NCBI GenBank assembly: GCA_964510515.1
Contig: CAZEAU010000008.1
Span: 5,379-69,378 of the forward strand
Direction: 5' to 3'
DNA: 64,000 nt
DNA from: an uncultured Actinomycetota bacterium
GTDB lineage: Bacteria; Actinomycetota; Geothermincolia; Geothermincolales; RBG-13-55-18
Shown: one piece after another, positions 10,102 through 50,738 of the stretch
Numbering within the stretch: position 1 is the first letter of the stretch
Layout: the number at the start of each line of letters is the position of its first letter
Made by a program: the position numbers and the translations under genes
Notes under the pieces: model-generated
The model's database searches: none
What the model was told of the DNA's origin: nothing
The model's input: the letters and a program-made list of their open reading frames with translations, nothing else

Positions 10102-10280
10102 CGCCCGCACTATCCCGCGGCCCCGCCCCGCCGGGCGGGGCCCTCTCTTTGCCCCGCATGGTCGGCGCCCGGCCCTCCCCTCCCCGCGCAGGCCCGGCCA
10201 TGCCCCCGCTGGCCGCGAGGGGGCCCGCCGCGGGGACGCGGGGCGAGGCGGATGCGCGCACGCAAGAGGCGCGGAATACC

Positions 10281-10309
10281 TTGTGTATAAGTTAAGCATG
10301 TTATATAAT
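10281..10309 (+). promoter_or_regulatory. Sigma70-like promoter: TTGTGT - N17 - TATAAT
   Basis: -35 TTGTGT at 10281-10286, a 17-nt spacer, then -10 TATAAT at 10304-10309. The first ATG of the ThiF frame (10316) lies 6-7 nt downstream, which implies a leaderless mRNA. Confidence 0.4.
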
Positions 10310-10315
10310 TCTTTC

Positions 10316-11152
10316 ATGCACGTAGACATCGCCGCCGCCATAAAGGAGCTGTCGTCCCCGAGTGAGGAGGGAGAGCCTCTGCTCATCGGGCTCGGCGCTG
10401 TCCGCCGCCTCGCCGCCGAGAGCGGGATGTCCCCCCTCGAGGTCGAGCGCGCCGCGCTGGATTGCGGCATCGTCCCCACCCGCTACCGGCTCAACACGGG
10501 CACCATCGGCATGGAGGGCCAGCTCAGACTGCTCCTCTCCCACGTGGGCATATGCGGCCTGGGGGGGCTCGGGGGGCATGTGGCGGAGGCGCTGGCGCGC
10601 TTCGGGGTCGGTCATCTCGTCCTCGCCGACGGGGACGTGTTCGAGGAGAGCAATCTCAACCGGCAGGCGCTGTGCACCGAGGCCGTGCTGGGCCGCCCCA
10701 AGGTGGAGGCGGCGGCGGAGCGCATAGCGGCCGTCAATTCCTCTCTGGTGGTGACGGCGCATCGGCGCTTCGTCGGCGCCGCCGATATCCCCGAGGTCTT
10801 TGCAGGCACCGACCTGGTCATCGACGCCCTGGATAACGTGCCCTCGCGCCTGGCGCTCGAGCGCGGCTGCGCCGAGCTGGGCATCCCGCTGGTGCACGGG
10901 GCCATCGCCGGCAACTCGGGGCAGGTGATGACGGTGCTCCCCGGCGACCCCGGACTCGCGGCCATCTACGGTGGCGGCGGGGACAGCGGCGTGGAGGCGC
11001 TCGAGGGCAACCCTCCCCCCACGCCGGCCCTCGTCGCCTCGCTGCAGGCGGTCGAGGCGGTCAAGGTCATATGCGGCGGGGAGCTCCTGCGCGGCGGGTT
11101 CCTGCTCCTGGACACCGCCGCCAACCTCTATCAGTTCATCCCCCTGAAGTAG
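10316..11152 (+). CDS. ThiF/MoeB/HesA-family E1-like adenylyltransferase
   Basis: GICGLGGLGGHVAEALARFGVGHLVLADGDVFEESNLNRQ Rossmann/ATP motif. The ORF track gives an upstream GTG start (10283), but the promoter places the start at ATG 10316 or 10298. Confidence 0.7.
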   Translation: MHVDIAAAIKELSSPSEEGEPLLIGLGAVRRLAAESGMSPLEVERAALDCGIVPTRYRLNTGTIGMEGQLRLLLSHVGICGLGGLGGHVAEALARFGVGHLVLADGDVFEESNLNRQALCTEAVLGRPKVEAAAERIAAVNSSLVVTAHRRFVGAADIPEVFAGTDLVIDALDNVPSRLALERGCAELGIPLVHGAIAGNSGQVMTVLPGDPGLAAIYGGGGDSGVEALEGNPPPTPALVASLQAVEAVKVICGGELLRGGFLLLDTAANLYQFIPLK

Positions 11153-14935: not shown

Positions 14936-15382
14936 GCCACCTCCTGGTCTGCCGCCTCGCCTCCTCGGTCCTGTCCGGGGCCGAATCCGGGTGCCGGAAT
15001 CAACCCACAAGCGCCCCCCGCGCCTGAGCGGGCGGGCGATCAAAAAGTAGAAACCCAAGATACCTTTGGGGCCGCCGGACCGGGGCCCGACGTTTTCTAC
15101 TCGGCATCCTGGGTTCCTACCAACGTTCCGGACGCGCAAGTCCCAAAAGCGCTTCAGTTCAGGTTTTCCCCCGATTCCAGCCGGAACGCCTCAATCATAT
15201 CATTCTCTTTTCGAGTGTCAATAGGGTGGGGGGTAATATTCTCGAAAATGTCCTTTGTGTACCAATATATACCATTTCATCGCCCCCTCCCGTTCTCCCT
15301 CTACGCCGCCGCCGGCGGCGGGCAGACCCCCGCCTTCTGCTATTATGTATTGGTGAGGAGGAGGGATGGAAGAGGAGGTACG

Positions 15383-32048: not shown

Positions 32049-33179
32049 TCAGTCCTTCCTCGTGCGCAGGGAGAGGACGGCGAGGGAGAGGAAGAGGGCG
32101 GCCATGAGCGTGAGGGCCAGGAGGTCCAGCCATATCTTTCCCACCCCCCAGCCCTTGAGCATCACCGCGCGCGAGGCGTTCACCGCATAGGTGGGCGGCA
32201 CCAGGTAGGAGAGCGGCCGCAGCCACGCCGGTATGGCCTCGATAGGCCAGAATATCCCCGCCAGGAGGAAGGCCGGGAGAATGACGTAGGGCAGCACCTG
32301 TATGGCCTGCGCCTCGCGGCGGGCGGTGCTGGAGAGGAGTATGCCCAGCGCCTGGGAGACCACGGCCAGAAGGGCGATGACCGCGAAGGCGAGGAGCACG
32401 TTCCCCACCACGGCGACGTCGAAGACCAGCATGCCCACCAGCAGGAGGAGGACGGCCTGCCCCGTGCCGATGAGGCTGAAGGCGGCGGCGTAGCCGAGCA
32501 CGATGTCCCTCTCCCTGAGCCGCGTGGCCAGCATGCGCTGCAGGGTACCGGAGGTCCTCTCGCCCACGAAGGTGACCAGGGTGAGCAGGGTGGTGATCAT
32601 GTACACCGCGAAGGCCATGATGCCGGGGACGAAGAAGTCCATGAACTTGGCCCCCTCGCCGAAGACGGCCACGGCCTCCACGCTCACCGGCAGGCTCAGG
32701 CCCGCCCCCTCCATCGCCGCCAGCAACGCCTCGTTCACCGCCTTGCTCACAGCCTCGGAAACGTTGACGTTGCTCCTGTCCAGGAGCAGCTCGATGGAGG
32801 CGGGAGGGGCCCCGGGGCGGCCTTCCAGGCCCGCGAGCGCAGCGGCGGTGAGGCCGGGCGGGAAGACCACGGCGGCATAGGCCTGCCCGGCCTCCACCAT
32901 GGCCAGCGCCGCCTCCCGGTCGTCCGCGTACTCCAGCTCCATCACCTCCTCATCCAGGTTGGAGACGAGCGCGCGGGACAGCGCCGCGGGAGCCCCCGCA
33001 GCGCCCTCGTCCAGGTCCACCACCGCCACTTTCACGTCCCTCACCTCGCCGCTGAAGGCCAGCCCGAAGACGAACATGACGAAGATGGGGGCGAGGACGA
33101 TGAGAGCCAGGGAGCGCTTGTCGTTCTTGAGGTCCATGAAAACCCGCCTGGTGACGGTGAGGAAGCGGAGCCCGCTCAT
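32049..33179 (-). CDS. ABC-2 type exporter permease
   Basis: 6 TM ABC-2 architecture. ATG overlaps the ATPase stop (ATGA). Confidence 0.8.
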   Translation of the reverse strand: MSGLRFLTVTRRVFMDLKNDKRSLALIVLAPIFVMFVFGLAFSGEVRDVKVAVVDLDEGAAGAPAALSRALVSNLDEEVMELEYADDREAALAMVEAGQAYAAVVFPPGLTAAALAGLEGRPGAPPASIELLLDRSNVNVSEAVSKAVNEALLAAMEGAGLSLPVSVEAVAVFGEGAKFMDFFVPGIMAFAVYMITTLLTLVTFVGERTSGTLQRMLATRLRERDIVLGYAAAFSLIGTGQAVLLLLVGMLVFDVAVVGNVLLAFAVIALLAVVSQALGILLSSTARREAQAIQVLPYVILPAFLLAGIFWPIEAIPAWLRPLSYLVPPTYAVNASRAVMLKGWGVGKIWLDLLALTLMAALFLSLAVLSLRTRKD

Positions 33180-33925
33180 CTCTCCTCCCCTCGCCCGCCA
33201 GCGACGAAGCTCATGAAGGCGTCCTCCAGGCTGGCGCTCCCGCTCATGGCCAGGAGCTCCCGCGGCCTGCCCTCGGCCAGGAGCCGCCCCTCGTGCATGA
33301 ACCCGATGCGGTCGCAGCGCCCCGCCTCGTCCATGTAATGGGTGGTGATGACGATGGTCCTCCCGTGCCCCTTGATCTCGTTGAAGTAGTCCCAGAAGGA
33401 GACCCGCAGCTCGGGGTCCACGCCCACGGTGGGCTCGTCCAGCAGCAGGAGGGCGGGCCTGTGCACCAGCGCGCAGGCCAGGGAAACACGGTGCTTCATG
33501 CCGCCGCTGAGCTTGCCCACCATCTCGTCGCGCCACTGCGCCAGCCCGATGAAGTCGAGCAGGGTCTTTTCTCTCTCCTCCACCTCGCGCCGGGAGAGCC
33601 CGAATATGGCGGCGAAAAAGGCCAGGTTCTGATGCACGCTGAGGCCGGGGTAGAGCGCGGTCTCCTGGGGCATGTATCCAATCTCCGCGGCGGTGCGCTC
33701 GTCGGGCACGCGCCTGCCGCCCACCCGGGCCTCGCCGCCGTTTATCTTGAGCAGCCCGCAGAGCATCTTGATGGTGGTGGTCTTGCCGGCCCCATTCGGG
33801 CCCAACAGGCCGTAGATCTCGCCCTTCCTCACGCGCAGGTCCAAGCCGTCCACGGCGGTGAAATCGCCGTAGCGCTTGACCAGGCCGCGCGTCTCCACCA
33901 TGAGAGCCGGTTCGTTTTCGACCAT
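33176..33925 (-). CDS. ABC transporter ATP-binding protein
   Basis: Walker A GPNGAGKTT, signature LSGGMKHR, Walker B LLLLDEP. Confidence 0.9.
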   Translation of the reverse strand: MVENEPALMVETRGLVKRYGDFTAVDGLDLRVRKGEIYGLLGPNGAGKTTTIKMLCGLLKINGGEARVGGRRVPDERTAAEIGYMPQETALYPGLSVHQNLAFFAAIFGLSRREVEEREKTLLDFIGLAQWRDEMVGKLSGGMKHRVSLACALVHRPALLLLDEPTVGVDPELRVSFWDYFNEIKGHGRTIVITTHYMDEAGRCDRIGFMHEGRLLAEGRPRELLAMSGSASLEDAFMSFVAGGRGEER

Positions 33926-33965
33926 GGGGTTATGCCTCCTTTTTCGCCGGCTCCATGCGGGGCAA

Positions 33966-34580
33966 CTAGATGCCCAGCCCCTCCTCGATCGCCTCGACCT
34001 CTTCCTCCCCGAAGGGCTCGATGGTCCCCCGGCCCCCGCGATGGTAGAGGGCCTCGGCCAGCAGCGCCATGGGGACGAGGGCGGCTATCGTCAGCCCCAG
34101 CCGCAACAGCATGAACTTCCAGCCAAGGAACTGCAGTTCCATCAGCTCCTGGGGCAGCTTGATGCAGGCCCAGGCGGAAAGGAAGAGGATGACGTTGGCC
34201 ACCCTGGCGCCCTTCTTCAGCAGCATAGCCGCCAGGGGAAAGGCGATGTAAAGGGGGCCGGTGGGCAGCGCTCCCAGCACCATCGCCAGGAAGAGGCCTC
34301 CGGCACCCGAGCCCTTGCCCAGGTATTTCACCACTATATTGCGGTCGACCCAGATGGCGAAAAGGCCCATGAGGACCATCAGGGCGGGAAGGACGAAGAC
34401 CATCTCCTTGAAGAACTCCCAGGAGGACTGCAGAGCCCGCTCGCCTTTGTCCGGGAAGATGAGGGACAGGCCGTAGAGCGCCACCGCGGAGGCGGCGAGG
34501 GCGACCAGGTCCCATTTTATCCGCTTGCGCAAGGAGGACTTTGTCTCCGTCCCGTTTGCGATCCCTTCGTTCTTCTTCAT
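33966..34580 (-). CDS. Predicted permease, second half of a split two-gene permease (PF03773/DUF318-like)
   Basis: Four or five TM helices. Paralogous to the adjacent upstream ORF. The pair lies downstream of PadR. Confidence 0.5.
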   Translation of the reverse strand: MKKNEGIANGTETKSSLRKRIKWDLVALAASAVALYGLSLIFPDKGERALQSSWEFFKEMVFVLPALMVLMGLFAIWVDRNIVVKYLGKGSGAGGLFLAMVLGALPTGPLYIAFPLAAMLLKKGARVANVILFLSAWACIKLPQELMELQFLGWKFMLLRLGLTIAALVPMALLAEALYHRGGRGTIEPFGEEEVEAIEEGLGI

Positions 34581-34605
34581 CTTCGAGCACCTCCGTCCTC
34601 GCCCA

Positions 34606-35091
34606 TCAACCCAGCACCAGGCCCATGATGACGGCGACAATGAGGGCCGCGGCGAAGCTGAGGCCGTTGCGGAGAAATGCGAAGCGTTTGCCCAGCTCCT
34701 TTATCTCGATGGGCAGGAAAACCAACCCGATCATGGTCAGGGTGGTGATGAAGGCGGCCATGGCCATCACCCCGGCCCCCATGTCCAGCAGGGATTTCGC
34801 CAGCGGGAAGGCGATGAGCGCCGGAATGAAGAGGACGGAGCCGAGCAATGAGGCGATGAGCAGGCCGGCGACGCCGCTCTCCCCCCCGATGATCGTGGCT
34901 ATCCACCTGGGTGGGATGAATCCCACGATGAGGCCGATGAGCGCGACCACCGCCAGCACGCTGGGGACCATCCTCTTCGTCGCGTTCCACGCGATGAGCA
35001 GGGCGCTCTTGGTCTTTCCCCTGTCCTTGGCGAGCGACAGCGTGAGACACACCACGACAAACGCGTTGATAACGATGGCGGTAAGCGACAT
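34606..35091 (-). CDS. Predicted permease, first half of split permease
   Basis: Four or five TM helices. Similar topology and sequence pattern to 33966-34580. Confidence 0.5.
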   Translation of the reverse strand: MSLTAIVINAFVVVCLTLSLAKDRGKTKSALLIAWNATKRMVPSVLAVVALIGLIVGFIPPRWIATIIGGESGVAGLLIASLLGSVLFIPALIAFPLAKSLLDMGAGVMAMAAFITTLTMIGLVFLPIEIKELGKRFAFLRNGLSFAAALIVAVIMGLVLG

Positions 35092-35096
35092 CGCCC

Positions 35097-35510
35097 TCAC
35101 CCCGCTTTCTCGCACAGGGCGATGAAGCCGTTGAGCATCTTCACCCTCTCCTTGAAGGCCTCCACCCAGGCGGCCAGCCTGGCCTCGCCCTGCGCGGTGA
35201 GGCGATAGACGCGCTTGGGGGGGCCCGCCTCGCCGTGCTCCCACTCCGAGCGCACCAGGCCGCCCCTCTCCAGCTCGCGCAGCATGCGGTAAACGGAGGC
35301 GGAGTCGGGCATGGGCCCGGGGAAAGGCAGGTTGCCGATATCCTCCGTGAGCTGATAGCCGTAACCGGGGCGCAGCTTGATGAGGTAGAGAAGCCGCGGC
35401 TCGAGGAATCTCTTGCGGGGCCCCTCGCGCACGAAACGCTCGTGGTCCAGGGTCTTCTCGACGCCTTGCGGCCTCCGGGCCTCCCGTCCCTTAGCCCTCG
35501 CCATGGTCAC
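35097..35510 (-). CDS. PadR-family transcriptional regulator
   Basis: LLYLIKLRPGYGYQLTEDIG .. SVYRMLRELERGGLV winged-helix signature. Confidence 0.8.
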   Translation of the reverse strand: MTMARAKGREARRPQGVEKTLDHERFVREGPRKRFLEPRLLYLIKLRPGYGYQLTEDIGNLPFPGPMPDSASVYRMLRELERGGLVRSEWEHGEAGPPKRVYRLTAQGEARLAAWVEAFKERVKMLNGFIALCEKAG

Positions 35511-35729
35511 CCTCCGCCTCTCCGTGCCTATATGCCATCATACATATAAGTGTAGTTTACATATAGATGGGCGTCAAGCGCCATTTCTCGGTCGTTGCTG
35601 TCCAGAAAAACAGGCGCCCCATCCCGAAGAAACCCCGGCACGCCATATCGGCTTAGCCCGCCCGGGCGGCGGGTCGCCGCATGGCAGCGCGCGGCCAGAG
35701 CTCGAGTCCTGCGGCCTGACCGCCGGGGT

Positions 35730-36398
35730 TCAGGCGAGCGGGTTTCCGCATTCGCCGCAGAAGCGGGACCCCTCCTGCGAGACCGCGCCGCATTTCTCGC
35801 AGATGATGAGCTTCAGGGGGGCGCCGCAGTTGTTGCAGAACTTCTCGTCCCCGACCGGCTTCTCGCACCTGGGGCACAGGGTCTGCTTGCTCTCGATTTC
35901 GCCGCTGAAGACCTGCGTGCCCTCCGCCTTCGCCCTGATGTCCGCCACCATCTTTTCCGAGCGCGCCGCCGCCACCTCGGAGGCCAGGCGCGGAGCGCAT
36001 TCCACGCACAGCCCCTCCTGCTCGTTCCAGTCGTTCAGGCAAACCCACTTCGTGCAGCGGGGGCAGCGCTTGAAGTGCCCCTTGCTCTCGTTCATGGCCA
36101 GCTCGAAGGCGGCGTCGTGCTCCTTATGCCACTCCGGCGACATGCCCCGATAGCGCTCGCTCACCGCGTCGAGCCCGCGGCTGGCGCCGTAACCCAGTCT
36201 GTAGCCCCTGCCGGTGATGGAGGAGGCCACGTCGATAACCCCGCCTAGCTTGCGGAAGAGGCTGCCCTTCTTGTAGGTCTTGGACTCTATGAACCTGGTC
36301 TTGTACCCCTCCTGACAGAGGTCGCAGTAGAAGACGAACTGAAAGCCCGCCTCCGTGCTGCTGTCGTCGAAGTTGTCGGTAAAAGCCTGCAAGGCCAT
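35730..36398 (-). CDS. Zinc-ribbon domain protein (222 aa)
   Basis: Contains CDLC, CPRC..C..C, CPRC..C.NC and C.KC..C..C pairs (double zinc ribbons). No enzymatic motif. Confidence 0.55.
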   Translation of the reverse strand: MALQAFTDNFDDSSTEAGFQFVFYCDLCQEGYKTRFIESKTYKKGSLFRKLGGVIDVASSITGRGYRLGYGASRGLDAVSERYRGMSPEWHKEHDAAFELAMNESKGHFKRCPRCTKWVCLNDWNEQEGLCVECAPRLASEVAAARSEKMVADIRAKAEGTQVFSGEIESKQTLCPRCEKPVGDEKFCNNCGAPLKLIICEKCGAVSQEGSRFCGECGNPLA

Positions 36399-36414
36399 CT
36401 CCGTCCCTCCCGTC

Positions 36415-36744
36415 TCATCTCATCGCTTTTCCGCACTTCACACAGGTATCCCCCAGCGGCGGCTGCTCGGCCCGGCACTTGCGATGGGGGCAAAAGACCG
36501 TCAGGCGGGCATCGCACGCCTGGCAATAGTCCCCGAAAAAGGTCTCCGCGCCGCAATGCGGGCAGGATATCCTGAGCGCGAGGCCGCAGTTGCCGCACGC
36601 CGCCCAGCCATCCTGCACGGGGCTCCTGCACTTGGGGCAGCGCGGCGAGCCCAGCGGGTTCACCCTCCCGCAAAGCGGGCAGACATGCGAGCCCTGGGAG
36701 ACCAGTCCGTCGCAATAGCGGCACGGCTGCTTGTATCCCGGCAT
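36415..36744 (-). CDS. Multi-zinc-ribbon protein (109 aa, about 8 CxxC pairs)
   Basis: CRYC, CPLC, CPKC, CGNC, CPHC, CQAC, CPHRKC, CVKC. ATG 36744; the ORF-track start further upstream falls in a low-complexity Arg stretch. Confidence 0.55.
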   Translation of the reverse strand: MPGYKQPCRYCDGLVSQGSHVCPLCGRVNPLGSPRCPKCRSPVQDGWAACGNCGLALRISCPHCGAETFFGDYCQACDARLTVFCPHRKCRAEQPPLGDTCVKCGKAMR

Positions 36745-36802
36745 CTCTCTCCCTCCTCGGCCCTGCCGTCCGGTCCGCCGGCGCGGGCGCTTCCCGCGGC
36801 CG

Positions 36803-38134
36803 CTAATCCGGCGGCGCCTCCTCCTCCTCGTCCGGCGCGGCCTCCCCGCCGCGCCACCTCTCGGCGTCATCTCTCGCGTCCACATTGAAGCGCAAGAGGT
36901 CCTCCACGTCCCTCCTCCACTGCTCGGGGGAGGAATGGAACACCCGGCCGATGAAGAGGTCCCTCAACATCCTCAGCTCCGGCAGCCGCCGCAGCGCATG
37001 GCGGTAGCGCGCGTATCTCGGCTCGCGCAGCCTCTCCTCCTCCAGGTATATGGGCTCGCGGCGGAAATTCACCGCCTGCAGGCAGTCGTTCAGCGCAGAC
37101 GCCAGCTCGTCCGCGCGCCGGTCCAGCGCCTCCATGTCGCGGGCCTCCCGGTACTCCTCGCGCCCCAGCAACCTGAAGAAATAGGTGGCCCTGCCGCCGC
37201 CGCGGGAGGACGCCGCCTCCATGGCCAGCGCGTTGCCCGGGAGCCGCGGGTCGCTCGCGTAAATGGGGGCCAGGAACCACAGGTACTCCGCGGTCAGCTC
37301 GCCCATGAGGCCGCGCTTGATGCCGATGCGCATCCCGCCCTCGCGGGCCATGGCCTTGAGTTGCTCGTACTCGTCCTTGAGCCCGACCAGCTCCAGCCTC
37401 GACTCCAGCTCCTCCCAGAGACCGGGCAATTCGCCCTCCAGGTCGCCCACGCGGACGGCCCTCCCCTCCCGCATCAAGCGGGACGCCCTCGCCAGGGTGG
37501 ATATGCCGGCCTCCGGCGCGAGTTCCTTGAGCAGGACCTGCGTCCTGAGCTCCATCTCCCGCAGGCGCTCCCCGAGGGCCTTGACGAAGGGCTCGAACTC
37601 CCTCCCCAGCATGGAGAGGACGACCCCGCCCCCCGCCTCGTCCAGTATCTCTATGGCGTAGTCGGCCTCGCGCACCTCGGCCATGTTCCCGTAAGGGAGC
37701 CGCAGCGGGTCGCCCGCCCCCGGCAGCAGCACCAAGGTCGTCTCGTACAGCCTGAGCTCCGCCTCCCCGCTCTCCTCGGCGCCGTCCCGTGCTCGCAGGG
37801 AGTAGCGGGCCGCGACCCCCTGCCTCAACGGCCTCTCCTGCACCAGCATGTCCGCAAGGATGAGCTCGCCGCGCCTGCGGGCCAGCTGGCGCACGAAATC
37901 CTCGTAATCCCTTCCCAGGCGGGACAGGCGCAGCTCCTCCCCCGAAGCCAGACGCAGGACGAGCGCGTAATCGGCCGCGCGGAGCCCGACGATATCGCGG
38001 TACGAGACATGCAGGGCGGTGCCCCCCTCGGGCATTATGGATATGCTGTCCTCGCCCAGCCTCGCCCCGGCATCGCCGGCGGCGGCGAGGTCGCCGTCCG
38101 CGCCCTTGAGTTCGTAGCTGGCCCTGGCCTCCAT
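36803..38134 (-). CDS. Hypothetical protein, 443 aa, internal tandem domain duplication, acidic C-terminus
   Basis: Two about 90-aa repeats (YRDIVGLRAADYALVLRLASGEELRLSRLGRDYEDFVRQLARRR and YGNMAEVREADYAIEILDEAGGGVVLSMLGREFEPFVKALGERLREM). First gene of a three-gene operon. Confidence 0.5.
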   Translation of the reverse strand: MEARASYELKGADGDLAAAGDAGARLGEDSISIMPEGGTALHVSYRDIVGLRAADYALVLRLASGEELRLSRLGRDYEDFVRQLARRRGELILADMLVQERPLRQGVAARYSLRARDGAEESGEAELRLYETTLVLLPGAGDPLRLPYGNMAEVREADYAIEILDEAGGGVVLSMLGREFEPFVKALGERLREMELRTQVLLKELAPEAGISTLARASRLMREGRAVRVGDLEGELPGLWEELESRLELVGLKDEYEQLKAMAREGGMRIGIKRGLMGELTAEYLWFLAPIYASDPRLPGNALAMEAASSRGGGRATYFFRLLGREEYREARDMEALDRRADELASALNDCLQAVNFRREPIYLEEERLREPRYARYRHALRRLPELRMLRDLFIGRVFHSSPEQWRRDVEDLLRFNVDARDDAERWRGGEAAPDEEEEAPPD

Positions 38135-38213
38135 CCTCCATCCTCTCCGCCGCCCGGGCAGGCGGCCGTTTTTCCCATCCTAGCATAAGCGACGCGCCGC
38201 TTGCCGCCCCCCC

Positions 38214-38260
38214 GTAACTCTATATAGTAACTCTATATATATTGATATTATATTGATATA
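38214..38260. promoter_or_regulatory. AT-rich tandem repeats in divergent promoter region
   Basis: GTAACTCTATATA occurs twice perfectly in tandem (38214-38239), then TATTGATAT twice (38240-38259). A sharp AT island in a GC-rich background. Confidence 0.4.
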
Positions 38261-38458
38261 TCCCTGGGCAGACGCGCGGCGGGGAGGGGATTCCCGTTTA
38301 GCAAGCGGCAGCCGTGGGAATCAAAGTAGAGTGCCCCCGGCGGGGCGGAGAGACCGGATGCGCCCGCGGATGAGGGCGCACGCCCCCGTCCCATGCCGCA
38401 GCGCGCGAAGGTAAAGATAAGAGGGCGGCAGGCCCGTGAAAAGCGAGGAGGCAAGGCC

Positions 38459-39169
38459 ATGAGGGCGAGGATAGGGAGCAGGGTCGAGGTGGCGGAGCAG
38501 ACCCTGCAGGTGGTGTTCGACCTGCTCGGAGAGACGGTGGACTTCAAGCCGGGACAGTTCTTCTTCGTGGACCTCATCGACCCGCCCTACGACGACAAGA
38601 GGGGGGCGCGGCGTCACTTCTCCATCGTCAACTCCCCCAACGAGAAGGGGGTCATCGTCATGGCCACGCGGCTGCGCGACTCAGCCTTCAAGAGGTCGCT
38701 GGCGGAGATGCCCGTGGGGAGCGAGGTGGAGATCTCCCGTTTGGGGGGAGAGGATTTCTCCCTCCCCGACGCGGGCGAGGCGCCGCTGGTATTCATCGCG
38801 GGGGGCATCGGCATCGCGCCCTTCATCTCCATGCTCAGATACGCCATGGAGGAGGACCTGCCCCATCACATCACCCTTATCTATTCCAACCGCGACCGCA
38901 AGTCGGCCCCCTACCTGGGCGAACTCGAGGAGCGCGCCGCGGGCAACAGCAAGCTGCGCCTGGTGCTGACCATGACCGACGAGCCCTCCTGGGAGGGCGA
39001 GGCCAGGAGGGTGGACGGGGACTTCATCGCCGAATACGTGCCCGACGCGGCCTCCTCCACCTTCTATATCGCTGGGCCCCCGGGCATGAACAAGGCGCTG
39101 GCGCAGGAGCTGCAGCGCGCCGGGGTGGACGCCGATTCCATCAAGGCCTCGAATTTCGCCGGCTATTGA
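38459..39169 (+). CDS. FNR-like FAD/NAD(P)-binding oxidoreductase
   Basis: RxFS FAD motif (RRHFSIVNSP), GGIGIAPF NAD motif, C-terminal AGPPGM. RBS AGGAGG. Confidence 0.8.
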   Translation: MRARIGSRVEVAEQTLQVVFDLLGETVDFKPGQFFFVDLIDPPYDDKRGARRHFSIVNSPNEKGVIVMATRLRDSAFKRSLAEMPVGSEVEISRLGGEDFSLPDAGEAPLVFIAGGIGIAPFISMLRYAMEEDLPHHITLIYSNRDRKSAPYLGELEERAAGNSKLRLVLTMTDEPSWEGEARRVDGDFIAEYVPDAASSTFYIAGPPGMNKALAQELQRAGVDADSIKASNFAGY

Positions 39170-39178
39170 GCGCCGCCC

Positions 39179-39571
39179 TCAGGAGAGCTTTATCTCCCGG
39201 GAGGACTCCCACAGGCCATGGATATTGCACAGGGCGAGGGCGTAGAGCGTCCCCGGCTTGTTCACCTTGAGATAGGCGACCACGGCGTGATGGGTATAGG
39301 CGGGGCCCTCGTTCGCCCCCTGCACGGACTCGCCGTGGGCGGTGAACTCGAAGTTCCCCACCTGATAGCTGAACTTGTCCCCCTCGGGATGGAAGAAGAG
39401 CTGTATCCACCTGATGTGATGCTCGGTGGTGTTGGGGTGGTCCACCTCCACTCCGAGCCCGACCTTCACCTCGAAGACCTCTCCCGCCCGCACCGCGTCC
39501 GGGCAGTCGATGGTGGGGACGTGTTTCTCCGTCTTCCAGTCGGCCGACTGCACCTGATCTCCCAGTTTCAT
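39179..39571 (-). CDS. Superoxide reductase (neelaredoxin / desulfoferrodoxin Fe-binding domain)
   Basis: EKHVP, HP.T.EHHI.W and CNIHGLWE ligand blocks (His4Cys). RBS AGGAGGTTGGAG. Confidence 0.8.
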   Translation of the reverse strand: MKLGDQVQSADWKTEKHVPTIDCPDAVRAGEVFEVKVGLGVEVDHPNTTEHHIRWIQLFFHPEGDKFSYQVGNFEFTAHGESVQGANEGPAYTHHAVVAYLKVNKPGTLYALALCNIHGLWESSREIKLS

Positions 39572-39735
39572 CTCCAACCTCCTCGGCATCGGGCGGCCCG
39601 TCGCCGCCGCTTCTCTCCTGAACCGCTCTCTAATAAACATTCCCTTGCGGGGAATGAATAAACCGCCTGCACGGGGCCAGGTCCGTCTTCGAGCCTGGGG
39701 GCACAGGCGGCCCCGGGCCGGGCCCGCAAGAGGCG

Positions 39736-40110
39736 TCAGCGCGGGCCGCGGTCGAGCCTGCGTGAGGAGATGACATCCACGCCGCTGCCCAGTATGTCCC
39801 GGAGGATGACCTCGCCGTCCGCGACCGGGGCGCGCATCTCCACGCGGGCCAGCTCCCGCACCGCCTCCCCGATCATGGACTTGGGGATGGGAGAGGCGCT
39901 CACCACCGGGAGCAGGGGCAGGGCGCCCCCCTTGACCCGCACGGTGGTGCTCAGCGTGCGGCGGGGGTCGCGGAACTCCTCCTCGGCATATTTCACCCCC
40001 ACCTTGCACTCGGCCCCCGCGACCTCCAGGACCTCCCCGTCCTCCTCCGTGAGCTCCAGGCCGCAGCTCAGGGGGCAGTTGATGCATACGAAGGCGTGCT
40101 TTTTCCTCAT
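39736..40110 (-). CDS. DUF1667 domain protein
   Basis: FVCINCPLSC .. ECKVG Cys pattern and size typical of DUF1667 proteins found with GlpA-like oxidoreductases. Start overlaps the upstream stop. Confidence 0.7.
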   Translation of the reverse strand: MRKKHAFVCINCPLSCGLELTEEDGEVLEVAGAECKVGVKYAEEEFRDPRRTLSTTVRVKGGALPLLPVVSASPIPKSMIGEAVRELARVEMRAPVADGEVILRDILGSGVDVISSRRLDRGPR

Positions 40111-41384
40111 CTCCGCCTCCCGCCCTCGCCCTCCACGGCCCGCACCTCCACGGCGATGCGCGGCGGGGCCTCCGTCTCCCGCGGTCCCACCCTGGCGTGC
40201 ACCATCTCCGGGGGTCGCACCATCCTCGCCTTGCGGGAATAGACCTCCTCGCCGGAGGCCATCACCACCGCCCGCGCCTCCCTCTCCGGGCGCTCCACGC
40301 GGAAGTAGAAATCCGCCCCCTCCCCCAGGCCCTCCACCAGCTGCGGGAGCACGAATCTCACATTCCTGCCGGCCTCGACGCGCGCGCAGGGCCCCCGCCT
40401 GCGCCCGGCGAGCACGAACTCCGCCGCCCCCCTCCCCGCCGTCTCCGACGTGCGCGTCACCCAGTCCACGAGGTCGAAGACGCCCACCACGTTGCCGCAG
40501 GCGAAGATGCCCGGAACCGAGGTCTGCATGCGCTCGTCCACCACGGGGCCGGAGGTGACCGGGTCCAGCTCCACGCCGGCCTGCTTGGAGAGCTCGTTCT
40601 CGGGGATGAGCCCCACGGAGAGGAGCAGGGTGTCGCAGGGCACGCGCCGCCCGCTCTCCACGCGCGGCCTGAGGTTCTCGTCCACCGCGGCCACCGTCAC
40701 CGCCTCCACCCGCTTGCGGCCGTGGACGAAGATGACGGTATGGGAGAGGTGCAGGGGGATGTCGTAGTCGTGCAGGCATTGCACCACGTTGCGGGTGAGC
40801 CCCCCGGGCTGGTCCAGGAGCTCATAGACCCCCTCCACCTCCGCGCCCTCCAGGGTGAAGCGGCGGGCCATGATGAGCCCGATGTCCCCCGAGCCGAGTA
40901 TGACCACCCTGCGCCCCGGCATGACCCCGTCGATGTTGATGTCCCTCTGGGCGGCCCCGGCGCAGATGACCCCCGCGGGCCGGTACCCCGGTATCATCAC
41001 CTGGTGGCGCGTGCGCTCGCGGCACCCCATGGCCAGGATGACCGTCTCGGGCTCGAGCTCGAACACGCCCTCGCGCGAGTTGACCGCGGCGATGCGGCGG
41101 TCCGCCCCCATCTCCAGGACCATGGTGTCCAGCATAACCTCGATGCCCGCCCGCTCCACGCGGTCGATATAGCGCTGGGCGTACTGCGGCCCGGTGAGCA
41201 CCTCGCCGAAGACCATGGAGCCGAAGCCGTCGTGAATGCACTGCGGCAGTATGCCCCCCAGCTCGATATCCCTCTCGATGAGCACCACATCGCGCAGGCC
41301 CGCCTCGCGCGCCGCCAGCGCCGCCGCCAGCCCCGCGGGGCCCCCGCCCACCACCGCGCACTGCGGCTTTCCCGCCACCCTCAT
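40107..41384 (-). CDS. NAD(P)/FAD-dependent oxidoreductase (pyridine nucleotide-disulfide family)
   Basis: N-terminal VVGGGPAGLAAA and a second VVILGSGDIGL dinucleotide motif. Confidence 0.8.
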   Translation of the reverse strand: MRVAGKPQCAVVGGGPAGLAAALAAREAGLRDVVLIERDIELGGILPQCIHDGFGSMVFGEVLTGPQYAQRYIDRVERAGIEVMLDTMVLEMGADRRIAAVNSREGVFELEPETVILAMGCRERTRHQVMIPGYRPAGVICAGAAQRDINIDGVMPGRRVVILGSGDIGLIMARRFTLEGAEVEGVYELLDQPGGLTRNVVQCLHDYDIPLHLSHTVIFVHGRKRVEAVTVAAVDENLRPRVESGRRVPCDTLLLSVGLIPENELSKQAGVELDPVTSGPVVDERMQTSVPGIFACGNVVGVFDLVDWVTRTSETAGRGAAEFVLAGRRRGPCARVEAGRNVRFVLPQLVEGLGEGADFYFRVERPEREARAVVMASGEEVYSRKARMVRPPEMVHARVGPRETEAPPRIAVEVRAVEGEGGRRR

Positions 41385-42937
41385 CGCGCCCCGCCCCCCA
41401 GGAGCTCCTTGGCCATGCCCAAATAGAGCGGGGAGCCCTCCCCGTCCTTGGTCACCGCGGTGACCGGGATGCCCAGCTCCGCGGCGAGGATGGCGGCCAC
41501 GCGGTTGCCGCAGAAGCCGCCCTGGCAGCGCCCCATGCCGGTGCGCGTGCGCCGCTTCACCGCGTCCATGTTCACGGCGGGTATGAGGGAATGCACGGCG
41601 TTCACCACCTCCATCTCGGTCACCGTCTCACAGCGGCAGATAACGTGCCCCCAGCGGGGGTCCTCACGGATGAGGCGGTTGCGCTCCTTCCGCGGCAGCT
41701 CGGAGAACTTGGGCGCGGGCGGCGCCGGGGGGTCGAAGTCCGGGCGCGGCTCGCGCGGCAGGCCCAGCTCGTGCAGGATCTCCAGCGCCATCTCCGCGAT
41801 GGCGGGCGCGGAGGCGAGGCCGGGGGACTGTATGCCGGCCACGTTTACGAAACCGCGCACCTCCTCCGAGGCGGCGATGACGAAGTCCTCCTCCAGGGTG
41901 GGGGCGCGGATGCCGCTGAAGGCGGAGATGAGGGCGTCGCGGGGAAAGTTGGGGAGCAGGTAATGGAACCTCTCGAAGATCTCCTCTATCTCGTCGGCTC
42001 CGATGGAGGTGTCCTGCTTGTCCGCGGTCTCGATGGCCGTGGGGCCCAGCTGCAGGTTGCCCTCCGCGGTGGGCATGGCCCCCCCGCCCTTGCTCTGGGT
42101 GGTCCTCTGCCCCGGCAGGCGGAACTCCGCCACGCTGGCGCGCACGTATTCCGCCGTCACCTGGCGGTCGAAGAGCAGGGTGGCCCCCTTGCGGGGGTGG
42201 ATGACGAAACCCCCCGCGCCGGCCATGTCGGCCACCTCGTCGGCGAAAACGCCCGCGGCGTTGACCACCAGGGGGGTCGCTATCTCGCCCCGCCGGGTGA
42301 GCACCCCCCTCACCTCCCCCCCCGAGACCCGGAAGCCCGTGACCTCGGTGCCCAGGCAGACGCGCGCGCCGTTGACGACCGCGTGCTCGGCCAGGGCGAT
42401 GGTCAGCTTATAGGGGCTGATGAGGCCGTAAGTGGGGTCGAAGACCCCGGCCACCGCCTCGCGGGTCACGTTGGGCTCCATCAGGAAGACCTCGTCCCGG
42501 CTGAGCGCGCGCAGCCCGCCGATGCCCGCGCTCTCGCCGTAGGCGATGATGGCCTCGGGTATCTTGCGCGTGAGGACATCCTCGCGCTCGGGCTCGCCCA
42601 TGCCCGTCGTCCCGGGCGGGATGGTGCGCTGGGTGATGACCAGGAGCATGCCCTGCCGCTTCAGCTTCACCCCCAGGCCGCGCACGAAATCGTCGTAGAG
42701 GCGGTTGCCGCGCACGTTGAGCTTCTGCTTGAGGGTGCCGGCGTCCTCGCCGATGCCCGAGTGCACCTCGGCGTTGTTGGCCTTGCTGGCCCCGCAGGCC
42801 ACGTCGTCCTCCTTCTCCAGGACCACGATGTCCGAGACGTACTTGGACGCCTCCCTGGCGATGGAGCAGCCGATGACCCCGGCCCCCACGACGACCATGG
42901 CGGCACGCTCGGGGAGGGGTTGTCCTGCGATCGGCAA
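41381..42937 (-). CDS. FAD-dependent oxidoreductase, GlpA-like, with C-terminal BFD-like [2Fe-2S] domain
   Basis: [15 protein letters not shown] motif. C-terminal HVICRCETV .. [13 protein letters not shown] signature. Confidence 0.8.
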
Positions 42938-50383: not shown

Positions 50384-50578
50384 CGCCTTCCCCTCCCAGC
50401 GCTCTTCAGCCTGCGCCATTTCGGCTCTACCCACAGGTAAACGCCAAGGAGCGCCGAGACGAGGCCGGAGTATATGTGCAGCTTTCTCAGAGTTTTTCTC
50501 CTCGGCATCATGCCTCTCATCCTCCAGCCCTCGAGGGGGTCTGCAGGGCGCCCCGACAGTTAATTATAGTCCTTATAT

Positions 50579-50696
50579 AGCATATGTCCAGTAACAAGAT
50601 CATGCTCCTCACGCTCGCATTTCATCATCTCATACACGATGCTTTACACATGGTTTACACTAGTATAATATATTTATGGGCATATGCCTAGTAATG
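50579..50696. promoter_or_regulatory. Divergent AT-rich promoter region with two 18-bp direct repeats around CATATG cores plus -35/-10-like boxes
   Basis: AGCATATGTCCAGTAACA (50579-50596) and GGCATATGCCTAGTAATG (50679-50696). TTTACA (50643) and TATAAT (50664) lie between them. About 40% GC. Confidence 0.4.
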
Positions 50697-50738
50697 AAGG
50701 CGCGGGGAGCGCCTGACGCGGATGTGGAGGTGAGACGG

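Follow-up and report, generated by a model that had tools for sequence, protein, structure and literature searches.

A co-conserved gene trio encoding a predicted tandem PH-like protein and two zinc-ribbon proteins in bacteria and archaea

Known bacterial PH (bPH) proteins are mostly small and membrane-anchored. The archaeal chemotaxis adaptor CheF (PF04283/DUF439) has two PH-like domains at its N-terminus and a helical region at its C-terminus, and its PH domains are platforms for protein docking, not lipid binders (PMC9126983). Tandem PH domains are also present in FACT and Rtt106, and for the SSRP1 tandem PH a role in DNA binding is reported (PMC4685450). Zinc ribbons are found in PSP-type systems. 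In the ydjFGHI/L system of Bacillus subtilis, YdjG has two zinc ribbons and a band-7 protein has one at its C-terminus, and membrane-associated proteins of PSP systems carry pairs of zinc ribbons at their cytoplasmic ends (PMC11237479). The small zinc-ribbon protein Ruc is described as becoming a chaperone upon oxidation (PMC7448276).

We analyzed three adjacent genes, here called A, B, and C, in a 64,000-nt stretch of DNA (the window) from an uncultured Actinomycetota bacterium. An earlier note, made from the sequence alone, had described them as a co-oriented, tightly spaced, and uncharacterised unit with no enzymatic domain, and both parts of that description held. The three open reading frames are on the minus strand, with A at 36803-38134 (443 aa, pI 4.98), B at 36415-36744 (109 aa), and C at 35730-36398 (222 aa). 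The gap from A to B is 58 nt and that from B to C 16 nt, and a GGAGG-type ribosome-binding site precedes each gene. B begins with MPGYK, as do its orthologues, rather than at the start of a longer 156-aa reading frame. Compared to the closest orthologue, dN/dS is 0.34 for A, 0.23 for B, and 0.14 for C, indicating that purifying selection acts on all three and that they are real genes. None of them matched an enzymatic, defence, or phage family in searches of Pfam, NCBIfam, PADLOC, and PHROGs; A had no matches at all while B and C matched only generic zinc-ribbon families. PADLOC-DB 2.0 likewise gave 0 families for the three proteins at E<=1. None of the three proteins in the window has a transmembrane or strongly hydrophobic segment. 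A search of Rfam over 35400-38600 yielded no RNA element, only one sub-threshold chance match, and the module was not described in the literature that we searched.

To judge whether the genes belong together, the earlier note had proposed an analysis of co-occurrence and synteny, and the trio proved to be strongly co-conserved. All three genes are present in 61 of the 80 genome loci found through A, 56 of them colinear in the order A>B>C, four in the order B>C>A, and one in another arrangement. The remaining A loci are almost all on truncated contigs; only one lacks both partners despite full flanks. Across loci a median of 81 nt separates A from B and one of 29 nt B from C; four loci have an overlap of a few bases between the matches to A and to B, compatible with translational coupling. 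Pairwise identity matrices of the three proteins correlate with one another (r about 0.53, Mantel p=0.001), with mean pairwise identities of 51% for A and 65% for both B and C. The trio is thus kept together and very strongly conserved, and we conclude that it is a real unit, an undescribed module.

The loci come from bacteria and archaea of more than 25 phylum-level groups, including Asgard archaea, Thermoplasmatota, methanogens, Patescibacteria (CPR), Mollicutes, Chloroflexota, and Actinomycetota, with archaeal members interleaved among the bacterial ones in the tree. Distribution is patchy, with 323 loci among 185,579 species genomes, or about 0.2% of species. Most carriers are bacteria, and carriers belong overwhelmingly to anaerobic lineages, a bias that may reflect the sampling of MAGs. 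Two are cultured, Methanocella arvoryzae MRE50 and Thermospira aquatica; the others, in their hundreds, are mostly uncultivated bacteria and archaea. No copies of the trio were found in phage, plasmid, or IMG/VR viral collections, and an origin from a mobile element or phage was rejected on these grounds.

Protein A appears, by its sequence, to represent a previously unannotated family. It has at least 311 homologues, with 925 clusters at 50% identity under a threshold of E<=1e-3. A profile search of the PDB with A gave only matches with E>1 (best E 1.3), so that the remote-homology check suggested in the earlier note left A without confident homology to a characterised family. Structure prediction, suggested there for all three proteins, gave an AF2 model of A with a pLDDT of 90.7. 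The same note had read two internal repeats of about 90 aa in A. These are real (residues 5-100 against 108-205, 35% identity, BLASTP E 7e-14; hhalign profile-profile E 6.8e-24), but they are not anonymous. In the model a set of seven strands and a helix occurs twice, at about residues 2-95 and 104-205 (DSSP), and the repeat is predicted to be a tandem pair of PH-like domains. The first comprises residues 1-100 (37835-38134, minus strand), seven strands with a C-terminal helix, and the second, its duplicate, residues 103-205 (37520-37828, minus strand). Foldseek matches of A to single PH domains (TMt 0.55-0.65, rmsd 3-4 A) are those of a member of the PH-like fold superfamily. The PH fold is a generic one. 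Foldseek of A against viral structures returned nothing meaningful.

The most conserved part of A is its C-terminal domain (residues 206-425, 36860-37519, minus strand), in which the model has a helical region and a five-stranded beta/alpha domain. It carries the invariant motifs GxKRGL..Y.WF..P and NFRREP.Y, and no relatives of it were detectable. Its reading as a third PH repeat was not supported by hhalign (E 0.07-0.3). Between AMEA and ATYFFR, homologues tolerate insertions of 70-100 residues in a loop; these are of low complexity and fall exactly at the Gly-rich EGGG, ruling it out as a phosphate-binding loop. The protein ends in the tail GGEAAPDEEEEAPPD (residues 426-443, 36806-36859, minus strand), with a pLDDT of about 40-47 and predicted to be disordered. 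It is acidic in the window, as first noticed, but is not a feature of the family, as the last 25 residues of 78 homologues have a median net charge of 0 (range -10 to +5).

B consists of four consecutive zinc ribbons. Its 16 cysteines form eight pairs, seven of them CxxC and one Cx4C, in good agreement with the approximately eight CxxC pairs counted earlier. All pairs are conserved in 46 orthologues, to which B is 52-84% identical. Both B (44.2 bits) and C (37.8 bits) score above the Pfam gathering score of 27.3 bits for DZR (PF12773). In C the match is at residues 175-218, bearing out the reading of this protein as an N-terminal domain plus a double zinc ribbon, the latter comprising residues 170-222 (with the stop codon, 35730-35891, minus strand). 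DZR was matched by 40 of 40 C homologues. C has 15 cysteines, with seven CxxC. Six of these residues, C25, C28, C112, C115, C120, and C131, are invariant within the N-terminal domain (residues 1-165, 35904-36398, minus strand). The model of C has a pLDDT of 71.5, with a Gly-rich linker of low confidence at residues 49-79 and a long helix at 138-160. Foldseek gave no PDB match with E<0.1 for this model, and a PDB profile search with C returned generic ribbons only. With neither a fold nor a family match found for it, the N-terminal part of C is probably a new, zinc-bound domain. The median pI values across homologues (A, 5.55; B, 8.9; C, 8.2) show an acidic A and basic B and C with complementary charges. 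JGI labels some of the C homologues as stomatin/prohibitin family.

Outside the trio, flanking genes are unrelated from locus to locus. Among 150 neighbouring genes from about 50 loci no family occurs more than four times, and the neighbours are housekeeping genes. Two Patescibacteria loci (L004 and L041) differ in the form of B, which there makes up residues of about 640-750 of a membrane protein of 733-751 aa. Besides a Cys-rich extracellular region and three to four transmembrane helices (DUF5684), this fusion protein carries a signal peptide. In this lineage, the only one in which the fusion was seen, a multi-pass membrane protein of about 740 aa with a large extracellular domain thus has B as its cytoplasmic tail. 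At three further loci (L060, L080, and L085) the N-terminal part of the fusion protein adjoins A and the contig then ends. Other lineages have optional genes between A and B, whose proteins bear a FecR or DUF4352 domain or a lipoprotein signal. Accessory genes across the loci include those for a CsgG/FlgO-like lipoprotein in L006, lipoprotein or transmembrane proteins in L007, L060, and L080, and a FecR-like protein with a signal peptide in L023. Most accessory FecR and DUF4352 proteins have neither signal peptides nor transmembrane helices and may be cytoplasmic.

The reading we favor, with a probability of roughly 35%, is that A, B, and C form one self-contained, non-enzymatic adaptor complex at the cytoplasmic face of the membrane. 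The trio would be inherited and horizontally transferred as a unit. A would serve as the scaffold, its two PH-like domains acting as docking platforms for peptides or proteins, as in CheF, and its ultra-conserved C-terminal domain providing the core interface of the complex. B and C, both basic, would bind the acidic A as rigid interaction modules stapled by Zn(Cys)4. The assembled complex might then be an adaptor or assembly platform for envelope-associated partners. Co-conservation, co-evolution, and complementary charge are consistent with a physical A-B-C complex, and a position near the membrane outside of Patescibacteria is suggested by extension from the B fusion. Archaeal and bacterial membranes differ, and a role in lipid binding is therefore hard to reconcile with free transfer between the domains.

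B and C might instead bind DNA, RNA, or the transcription or translation machinery, with the acidic A as a chaperone or regulator similar to FACT or Rtt106. The best PDB folds for A in Foldseek are the tandem PH domains of Pob3-M (2gcj), SSRP1-M (6l1e), Spt16-M (5umu), and Rtt106 (3gyo), with E of 4e-6 to 3e-3, and the DNA binding reported for SSRP1 (PMC4685450) would fit, as would the charges of the three proteins. A universal DNA or RNA target would also explain both the extreme conservation and the free inter-domain transfer. However, over the tandem pair the TM-scores are only 0.15-0.20 (TMq) and 0.25-0.30 (TMt) with an rmsd of 9-12 A, indicating that the inter-domain geometry of A differs from that of FACT and Rtt106. 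No helix-turn-helix, nuclease, helicase, or polymerase partner was found, nor any conserved neighbour; the acidic tail is unconserved; and most carriers are bacteria without histones. B has a weak match to a PHROG 'DNA binding protein' (E 0.0016), and source annotations of its homologues include RPABC4/Spt4 and L40e, which would point toward nucleic acids except that the names are generic zinc-ribbon COG assignments. With B tethered to a membrane protein in Patescibacteria, the balance tips slightly toward protein binding at the membrane over nucleic-acid binding, and we consider a nucleic-acid complex unlikely.

In the window, the trio is preceded by a divergent intergenic region (38135-38460) containing an AT island (38207-38273, assigned to no strand). 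The earlier note had seen two perfect tandem repeats here and taken them as part of an AT-rich promoter of the operon. Both repeats are perfect: GTAACTCTATATA occurs twice at 38214-38239 (100% match), while the second repeat is better described as two copies of the 11-nt unit TATATTGATAT at 38238-38259 (100% match). At 17% GC, positions 38214-38261 are the most AT-rich 48-mer of the window, which is 67% GC overall and whose next lowest 48-mers have 27-29%. A perfect TATAAT is at 38252>38247 on the minus strand. The island is a putative promoter or operator, local in nature and common to the trio and a divergent oxidoreductase gene. It stands outside the module and is specific to this lineage, and no AT-rich tandem-repeat region was found upstream of the closest orthologue (L009). 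The trio would probably be transcribed from the island, and the tandem repeats, which overlap the perfect -10 hexamer, could be an operator. The motif was also considered as a regulon signature and rejected, since the window has no further good copy of it and the region upstream of the orthologue has none.

The PadR regulator and the redox and oxidative-stress genes named in the earlier note do flank the trio here, but they recur only in the closest relative. PadR (35097-35510) adjoins the trio on one side, and on the other are an FNR-like oxidoreductase, a superoxide reductase, and a DUF1667/Pyr_redox_2/DAO operon. PadR was rejected as the regulator of the module, as the adjacency is otherwise limited to L009 and this PadR is the first gene of a separate operon, of permease and ABC-transporter genes, that has a promoter-like site to itself. 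Both the PadR and the redox context are lineage-specific. A further reading is a redox or metal module of anaerobes, in which the approximately eight Cys4 sites of B and C form rubredoxin-like iron centers or a zinc-thiolate switch like that of Hsp33 or Ruc, and A binds clients or partners. The 31 cysteines of B and C with their CPxCG knuckles, the anaerobic lineages of the carriers, the promoter region common with the FNR-like oxidoreductase, the adjoining superoxide reductase, and the Ruc precedent (PMC7448276) agree with such a module. However, the redox neighbourhood lies 6 kb away in L009 and is conserved nowhere else, and the 150 neighbours have no enrichment in oxidoreductase families. 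The Pfam matches of B and C, including those of C homologues, are to zinc ribbons and not to rubredoxin, the identity of the metal cannot be inferred from sequence, and the anaerobe bias may stem from the sampling of MAGs; a redox or metal module is distinctly doubtful. Conflict systems evolve rapidly, and an anti-phage defence or toxin-antitoxin-like cassette of three genes, to which the patchy distribution, the interleaving of archaea with bacteria, and an integrase, ParB, or transposase near two loci (L007 and L006) might point, is very improbable given 65% identity across domains, far above the norm for such systems, housekeeping neighbours rather than defence islands, no PADLOC match, no effector-like enzymatic or pore-forming domain, and absence from phages, plasmids, and viral contigs.

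Conserved modules without functional annotation that span both prokaryotic domains are rare. The 65% identity of B and C exceeds, to our knowledge, the typical inter-domain identity of most universal ribosomal proteins. Such identity in only about 0.2% of species implies that the function is portable, under strong constraint, and directed at something that all carriers share. With the adaptor complex as the preferred reading, it is a long shot, which we consider improbable, that the trio is an unrecognised, self-contained cellular machine, built of a tandem-PH scaffold and two subunits of arrayed zinc ribbons, moving between bacteria and archaea as a cassette and linking membrane or envelope events to cytoplasmic assembly. 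As Asgard archaea carry the trio, eukaryotic adaptors with both PH domains and zinc fingers, such as FACT or the Vps36 GLUE domain might exemplify, could then have a prokaryotic antecedent in it. The module defines A as a new protein family and the N-terminal part of C as a new domain, and it may provide the very common, functionally opaque DZR domain with its first defined partner. Its function is directly testable in the two cultured carriers. It has no immediate medical or biotechnological relevance.

Set against the systems described above, the trio as a whole matches none. Like FACT and Rtt106, A has tandem PH domains and, in the window, an acidic C-terminal tail; unlike them, it lacks sequence similarity, the pair does not superpose as a unit, and the family does not conserve the tail. 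Bacterial PH proteins (bPH_5, YcxB) are of the same fold class as the PH-like domains of A. In the A family sub-threshold matches were to YcxB in 3 of 48 proteins (best E 0.0019) and to bPH_5 in 2 of 48, with 0 matches to bPH_1-6/YcxB for A of the window at E<=5. We know of no bPH protein with a C-terminal domain of the A type or with paired zinc-ribbon genes. The Pfam DZR domain is generic and covers only 45 residues of C and not the four-ribbon array of B as a unit. CheF may be comparable to A in its architecture, two N-terminal PH-like domains and then a helical C-terminal region; Foldseek aligns A with CheF (7ovp_A) at E 2.3e-5 over 317 columns, but with a TM of 0.17-0.21 and an rmsd of 20 A, and the C-terminal part of A has beta strands as well. 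Unlike archaeal CheF, A is found in bacteria as well as archaea, its C-terminal part includes a beta domain with invariant motifs of its own, no che/arl families are among the 150 neighbours of the trio, and the CheF-arch model (PF04283) has 0 matches in A and 47 homologues at E<=5. CheF, in contrast to A, does without obligatory zinc-ribbon partners.

PadR regulators are recurrent partners of PSP-type systems, and PadR adjoins the trio in the window, an adjacency that is lineage-specific. The 25 commonest families in the set of 150 neighbours do not include PspA, band-7, TPM, or Toastrack, and the flanks in the window have none of these either. The likeness to PSP-type systems is in the Patescibacteria, where the fusion of B puts zinc-ribbon pairs at the cytoplasmic end of a membrane protein, as in the membrane-associated proteins of those systems.

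The three genes of the trio are encoded on the minus strand at 36803-38134 (A, the tandem PH-like protein; 443 aa, pI 4.98), 36415-36744 (B, a zinc-ribbon protein of 109 aa with 16 Cys) and 35730-36398 (C, also a zinc-ribbon protein; 222 aa, 15 Cys). Gaps of 58 nt (A-B) and 16 nt (B-C) separate them, and a GGAGG-type ribosome-binding site precedes each. The earlier note had described three co-oriented, closely spaced genes, and every detail of its sequence observation was confirmed. B starts with MPGYK, as in all orthologues; a 156-aa ORF overlapping A has the wrong start. Very long spurious ORFs are typical of 67%-GC DNA. Two cover A in other frames (36731-38188, plus strand, 485 aa; 36867-38186, minus strand, 439 aa); they are not genes, and a naive longest-ORF filter selects such ORFs in place of A.

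More than 311 homologues of A were found (925 clusters at 50% identity), along with 1,248 matches to C at about 65-70% identity and B orthologues at 53-84% identity. A pattern search covering a single genome for each species recovered 323 loci among 185,579 species. Of the best 80 of these, 61 encode both B and C beside A: 56 are colinear as A>B>C, four read B>C>A and one has another arrangement. Only one partner is present in six loci. Neither is found in 13, though in 12 of them the contig ends near A; the other, from a Thorarchaeota MAG, has full 10-kb flanks. Between A and B the median gap among the loci examined is 81 nt, and between B and C it is 29 nt. Carriers occur in over 25 phylum-level groups. 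They include Asgard archaea (Frey-, Jord-, Borr- and Thorarchaeota), Thermoplasmatota, Bathyarchaeia, Methanomethylicota and methanogens, and among the bacteria Actinomycetota, Chloroflexota, Bacillota, Mycoplasmatota, Patescibacteria, Elusimicrobiota, Aminicenantes, Spirochaetota and others. Two carriers, Methanocella arvoryzae and Thermospira aquatica, are cultured, making the trio testable.

Across 40 complete loci mean pairwise identity is 51% for A and 65% for both B and C, and the three proteins co-evolve, their identity matrices correlating at r about 0.53 (Mantel p 0.001). In a star-like tree of A, archaeal branches are scattered between bacterial ones, and A, B and C have dN/dS values of 0.14-0.34 relative to their nearest orthologues. 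Together with the arrangement counts, these comparisons indicate that the trio is inherited as one unit, with transfer of the whole from time to time, and that it is under strong purifying selection. Such exceptional conservation, combined with a patchy distribution over both domains, is surprising.

Several loci carry variants of A. In L008, a MAG locus on a 1.56-Mb contig (6310-7666), A is a 127-aa ORF with the first PH domain only (42% identity to A residues 1-78), and the B and C genes behind it are intact; A here is either decaying or a minimal form. The A homologues of loci L011 (1325-3382) and L020 (9938-11998) are extended at the C-terminus by a further domain of about 240 aa that matches no family and that in locus L048 is a separate ORF (1805-2473). 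All three co-occur with the FecR-domain and DUF4352-like accessory genes discussed below.

Protein A had no match in Pfam, NCBIfam, PADLOC or PHROGs, nor in the PDB by profile search. The internal duplication noticed earlier was borne out (35% identity, E 7e-14; hhalign E 6.8e-24). The AlphaFold2 model, based on 48 homologues, has high confidence (pLDDT 90.7, pTM 0.86) and predicts PH-like domains at residues 2-95 and 104-205, then a helical segment and a beta/alpha domain. Searching the PDB with this model, Foldseek returned the tandem-PH proteins Pob3-M (E 4e-6), SSRP1-M, Spt16-M and Rtt106, and the archaeal chemotaxis adaptor CheF (7ovp, E 2.3e-5 over 317 columns). As TM-scores to these tandem-PH matches are only 0.15-0.30, with single PH domains superposing at 3-4 Å, the similarity is one of fold and architecture, not family membership. 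Remote-homology search and structure prediction thus give A a tandem PH-like fold matching no characterised family. Most invariant residues (e.g. GxKRGL, Y.WF..P, NFRREP.Y) lie in the C-terminal part (206-425), for which no relatives were detectable. An hhalign comparison gave no support for this part being a third copy of the repeat. Its Gly-rich loop is not a phosphate-binding loop, since homologues tolerate insertions of 70-100 residues there.

B and C proved to be multi-zinc-ribbon proteins as proposed, both in the double zinc ribbon (DZR) family. B consists of four ribbons with all Cys pairs conserved among orthologues. C has a highly conserved N-terminal domain (invariant Cys 25, 28, 112, 115, 120 and 131), a low-confidence Gly-rich linker, a long helix and a C-terminal double zinc ribbon; profile search of the PDB, Foldseek and a family scan gave only generic ribbon matches for it. 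Median pI across homologues is 5.55 for A, 8.9 for B and 8.2 for C, so that an acidic protein accompanies two basic ones of complementary charge.

B has no gene of its own in Patescibacteria. At loci L004 and L041 its sequence makes up the last ~110 residues of a longer protein (733-751 aa) that also has a signal peptide, 3-4 TM helices (DUF5684) and an extensive extracellular region (Cys-rich DUF7107); at three further Patescibacteria loci the N-terminal part of this protein adjoins A before the contig ends. The fusion puts B on the cytoplasmic side of the membrane in this lineage and implies the same for its partners. About 13 loci have additional genes between A and B. Their products include proteins of ~450 aa with a C-terminal FecR domain and of ~380 aa with a DUF4352-like end, which have an N-terminal 'LPxxWxE' region in common. 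Most have no predicted signal peptide or TM helices; the FecR-like protein of a Bacteroidales locus has a signal peptide. Thermospira encodes a CsgG/FlgO-like lipoprotein at this position, and Saccharicenans encodes lipoprotein and TM proteins as well as another DZR protein. The PH domains of CheF are protein-docking platforms (PMC9126983), and PSP-type envelope systems repeatedly use zinc-ribbon pairs at the cytoplasmic ends of their membrane-associated proteins (PMC11237479).

We tentatively favor, at a probability of roughly 35%, a non-enzymatic complex that serves near the membrane as an adaptor or in assembly. A would be its PH-domain scaffold and B and C its Zn-stapled interaction modules, the three presumably binding one another and perhaps lying near the membrane beyond Patescibacteria as well. 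Against this, B is fused to a membrane protein in one lineage only, and the main gap is that A's most conserved domain is unaccounted for. A nucleic-acid-associated complex, which we consider rather unlikely, would suit the FACT-like folds of A, the basic ribbons of B and C and a target as universal as nucleic acid, but the trio has no nucleic-acid-related partner gene and in Patescibacteria a membrane protein carries B.

The 31 Cys of B and C, the anaerobic carriers and the redox genes nearby could also suggest a redox or metal switch of anaerobes. That context is not conserved, however, and we regard such a switch as quite unlikely. On one side of the trio (38393-42937) lie a divergent FNR-like FAD/NAD oxidoreductase gene (likely true start 38461, behind a GAGGAGG site) and, on the minus strand, a superoxide reductase gene (Desulfoferrodox, about 39179-39568) followed by an operon for DUF1667, Pyr_redox_2 and DAO+BFD (GlpA-like) proteins; ORFs 39179-40087 and 39736-40779 have over-extended 5' ends. 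Directly downstream of C, PadR (35097-35510) heads its own minus-strand operon (32049-35510) of two half-size ArsP_1-like permeases (34606-35244, 33966-34640), an ABC ATPase (33176-33925) and an ABC-2 permease, with an AT-rich promoter-like site at 35577>35549. The PadR block recurs behind C, at 73-83% identity, only in L009, the closest relative, as do the superoxide reductase and FNR-like genes, there 6 kb away. The 150 flanking genes surveyed, from about 50 loci, belong to ordinary metabolic and transport families, and no Pfam family exceeds a count of four. A defense or conflict cassette is very improbable given zero PADLOC matches, loci outside defense islands, no effector and too high a conservation. 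Relatives of A were not found in IMG/VR, phage or plasmid collections. The probability left over from these four explanations goes to something else.

The region upstream of A (38135-38460) is shared with the divergent FNR-like gene and includes the window's most AT-rich 48-mer (17% GC against 67% overall), with perfect tandem copies of GTAACTCTATATA x2 (38214-38239) and TATATTGATAT x2 (38238-38259) and, read from the sequence, a perfect minus-strand TATAAT (38252>38247); a promoter consensus scan of this region found a promoter-like site on the plus strand only. The only other AT-rich islands (10273-10329, 15233-15281, 50556-50698) have 27-29% GC over 48 nt. No other good copy of the repeats occurs in the window; the second of these islands, at 15259, resembles them weakly (2-3 mismatches, both strands). 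A GC-rich hairpin, GCCGCCCGGGCAGGCGGC (38149-38166), in the presumed 5' UTR just upstream of A's ribosome-binding site, was flagged as terminator-like on the plus strand by a terminator scan. It could influence how translation of A starts, or stop transcription reading in from the other side. The island and repeats are real but absent upstream of the A orthologue in L009, and the acidic tail, present in the window's A, is not conserved across homologues. The AT-repeat promoter, acidic tail, PadR and redox genes, all present as the earlier note had it, are features of this lineage only.

Its core reading, an uncharacterized three-gene module with zinc ribbons, stands, the trio being co-conserved and matching no described system. 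B and C fall into the generic DZR family (PF12773) and the repeats of A belong to the PH-like fold class. A may share with CheF a two-PH-plus-tail layout, but failed tests of membership in CheF, FACT/Rtt106 and the Pfam bPH families, as did the trio for PSP modules and PADLOC defense systems, and literature searches found no published description of an A-B-C module. We therefore rate the trio as outside all described kinds of system, though it is made of familiar folds.
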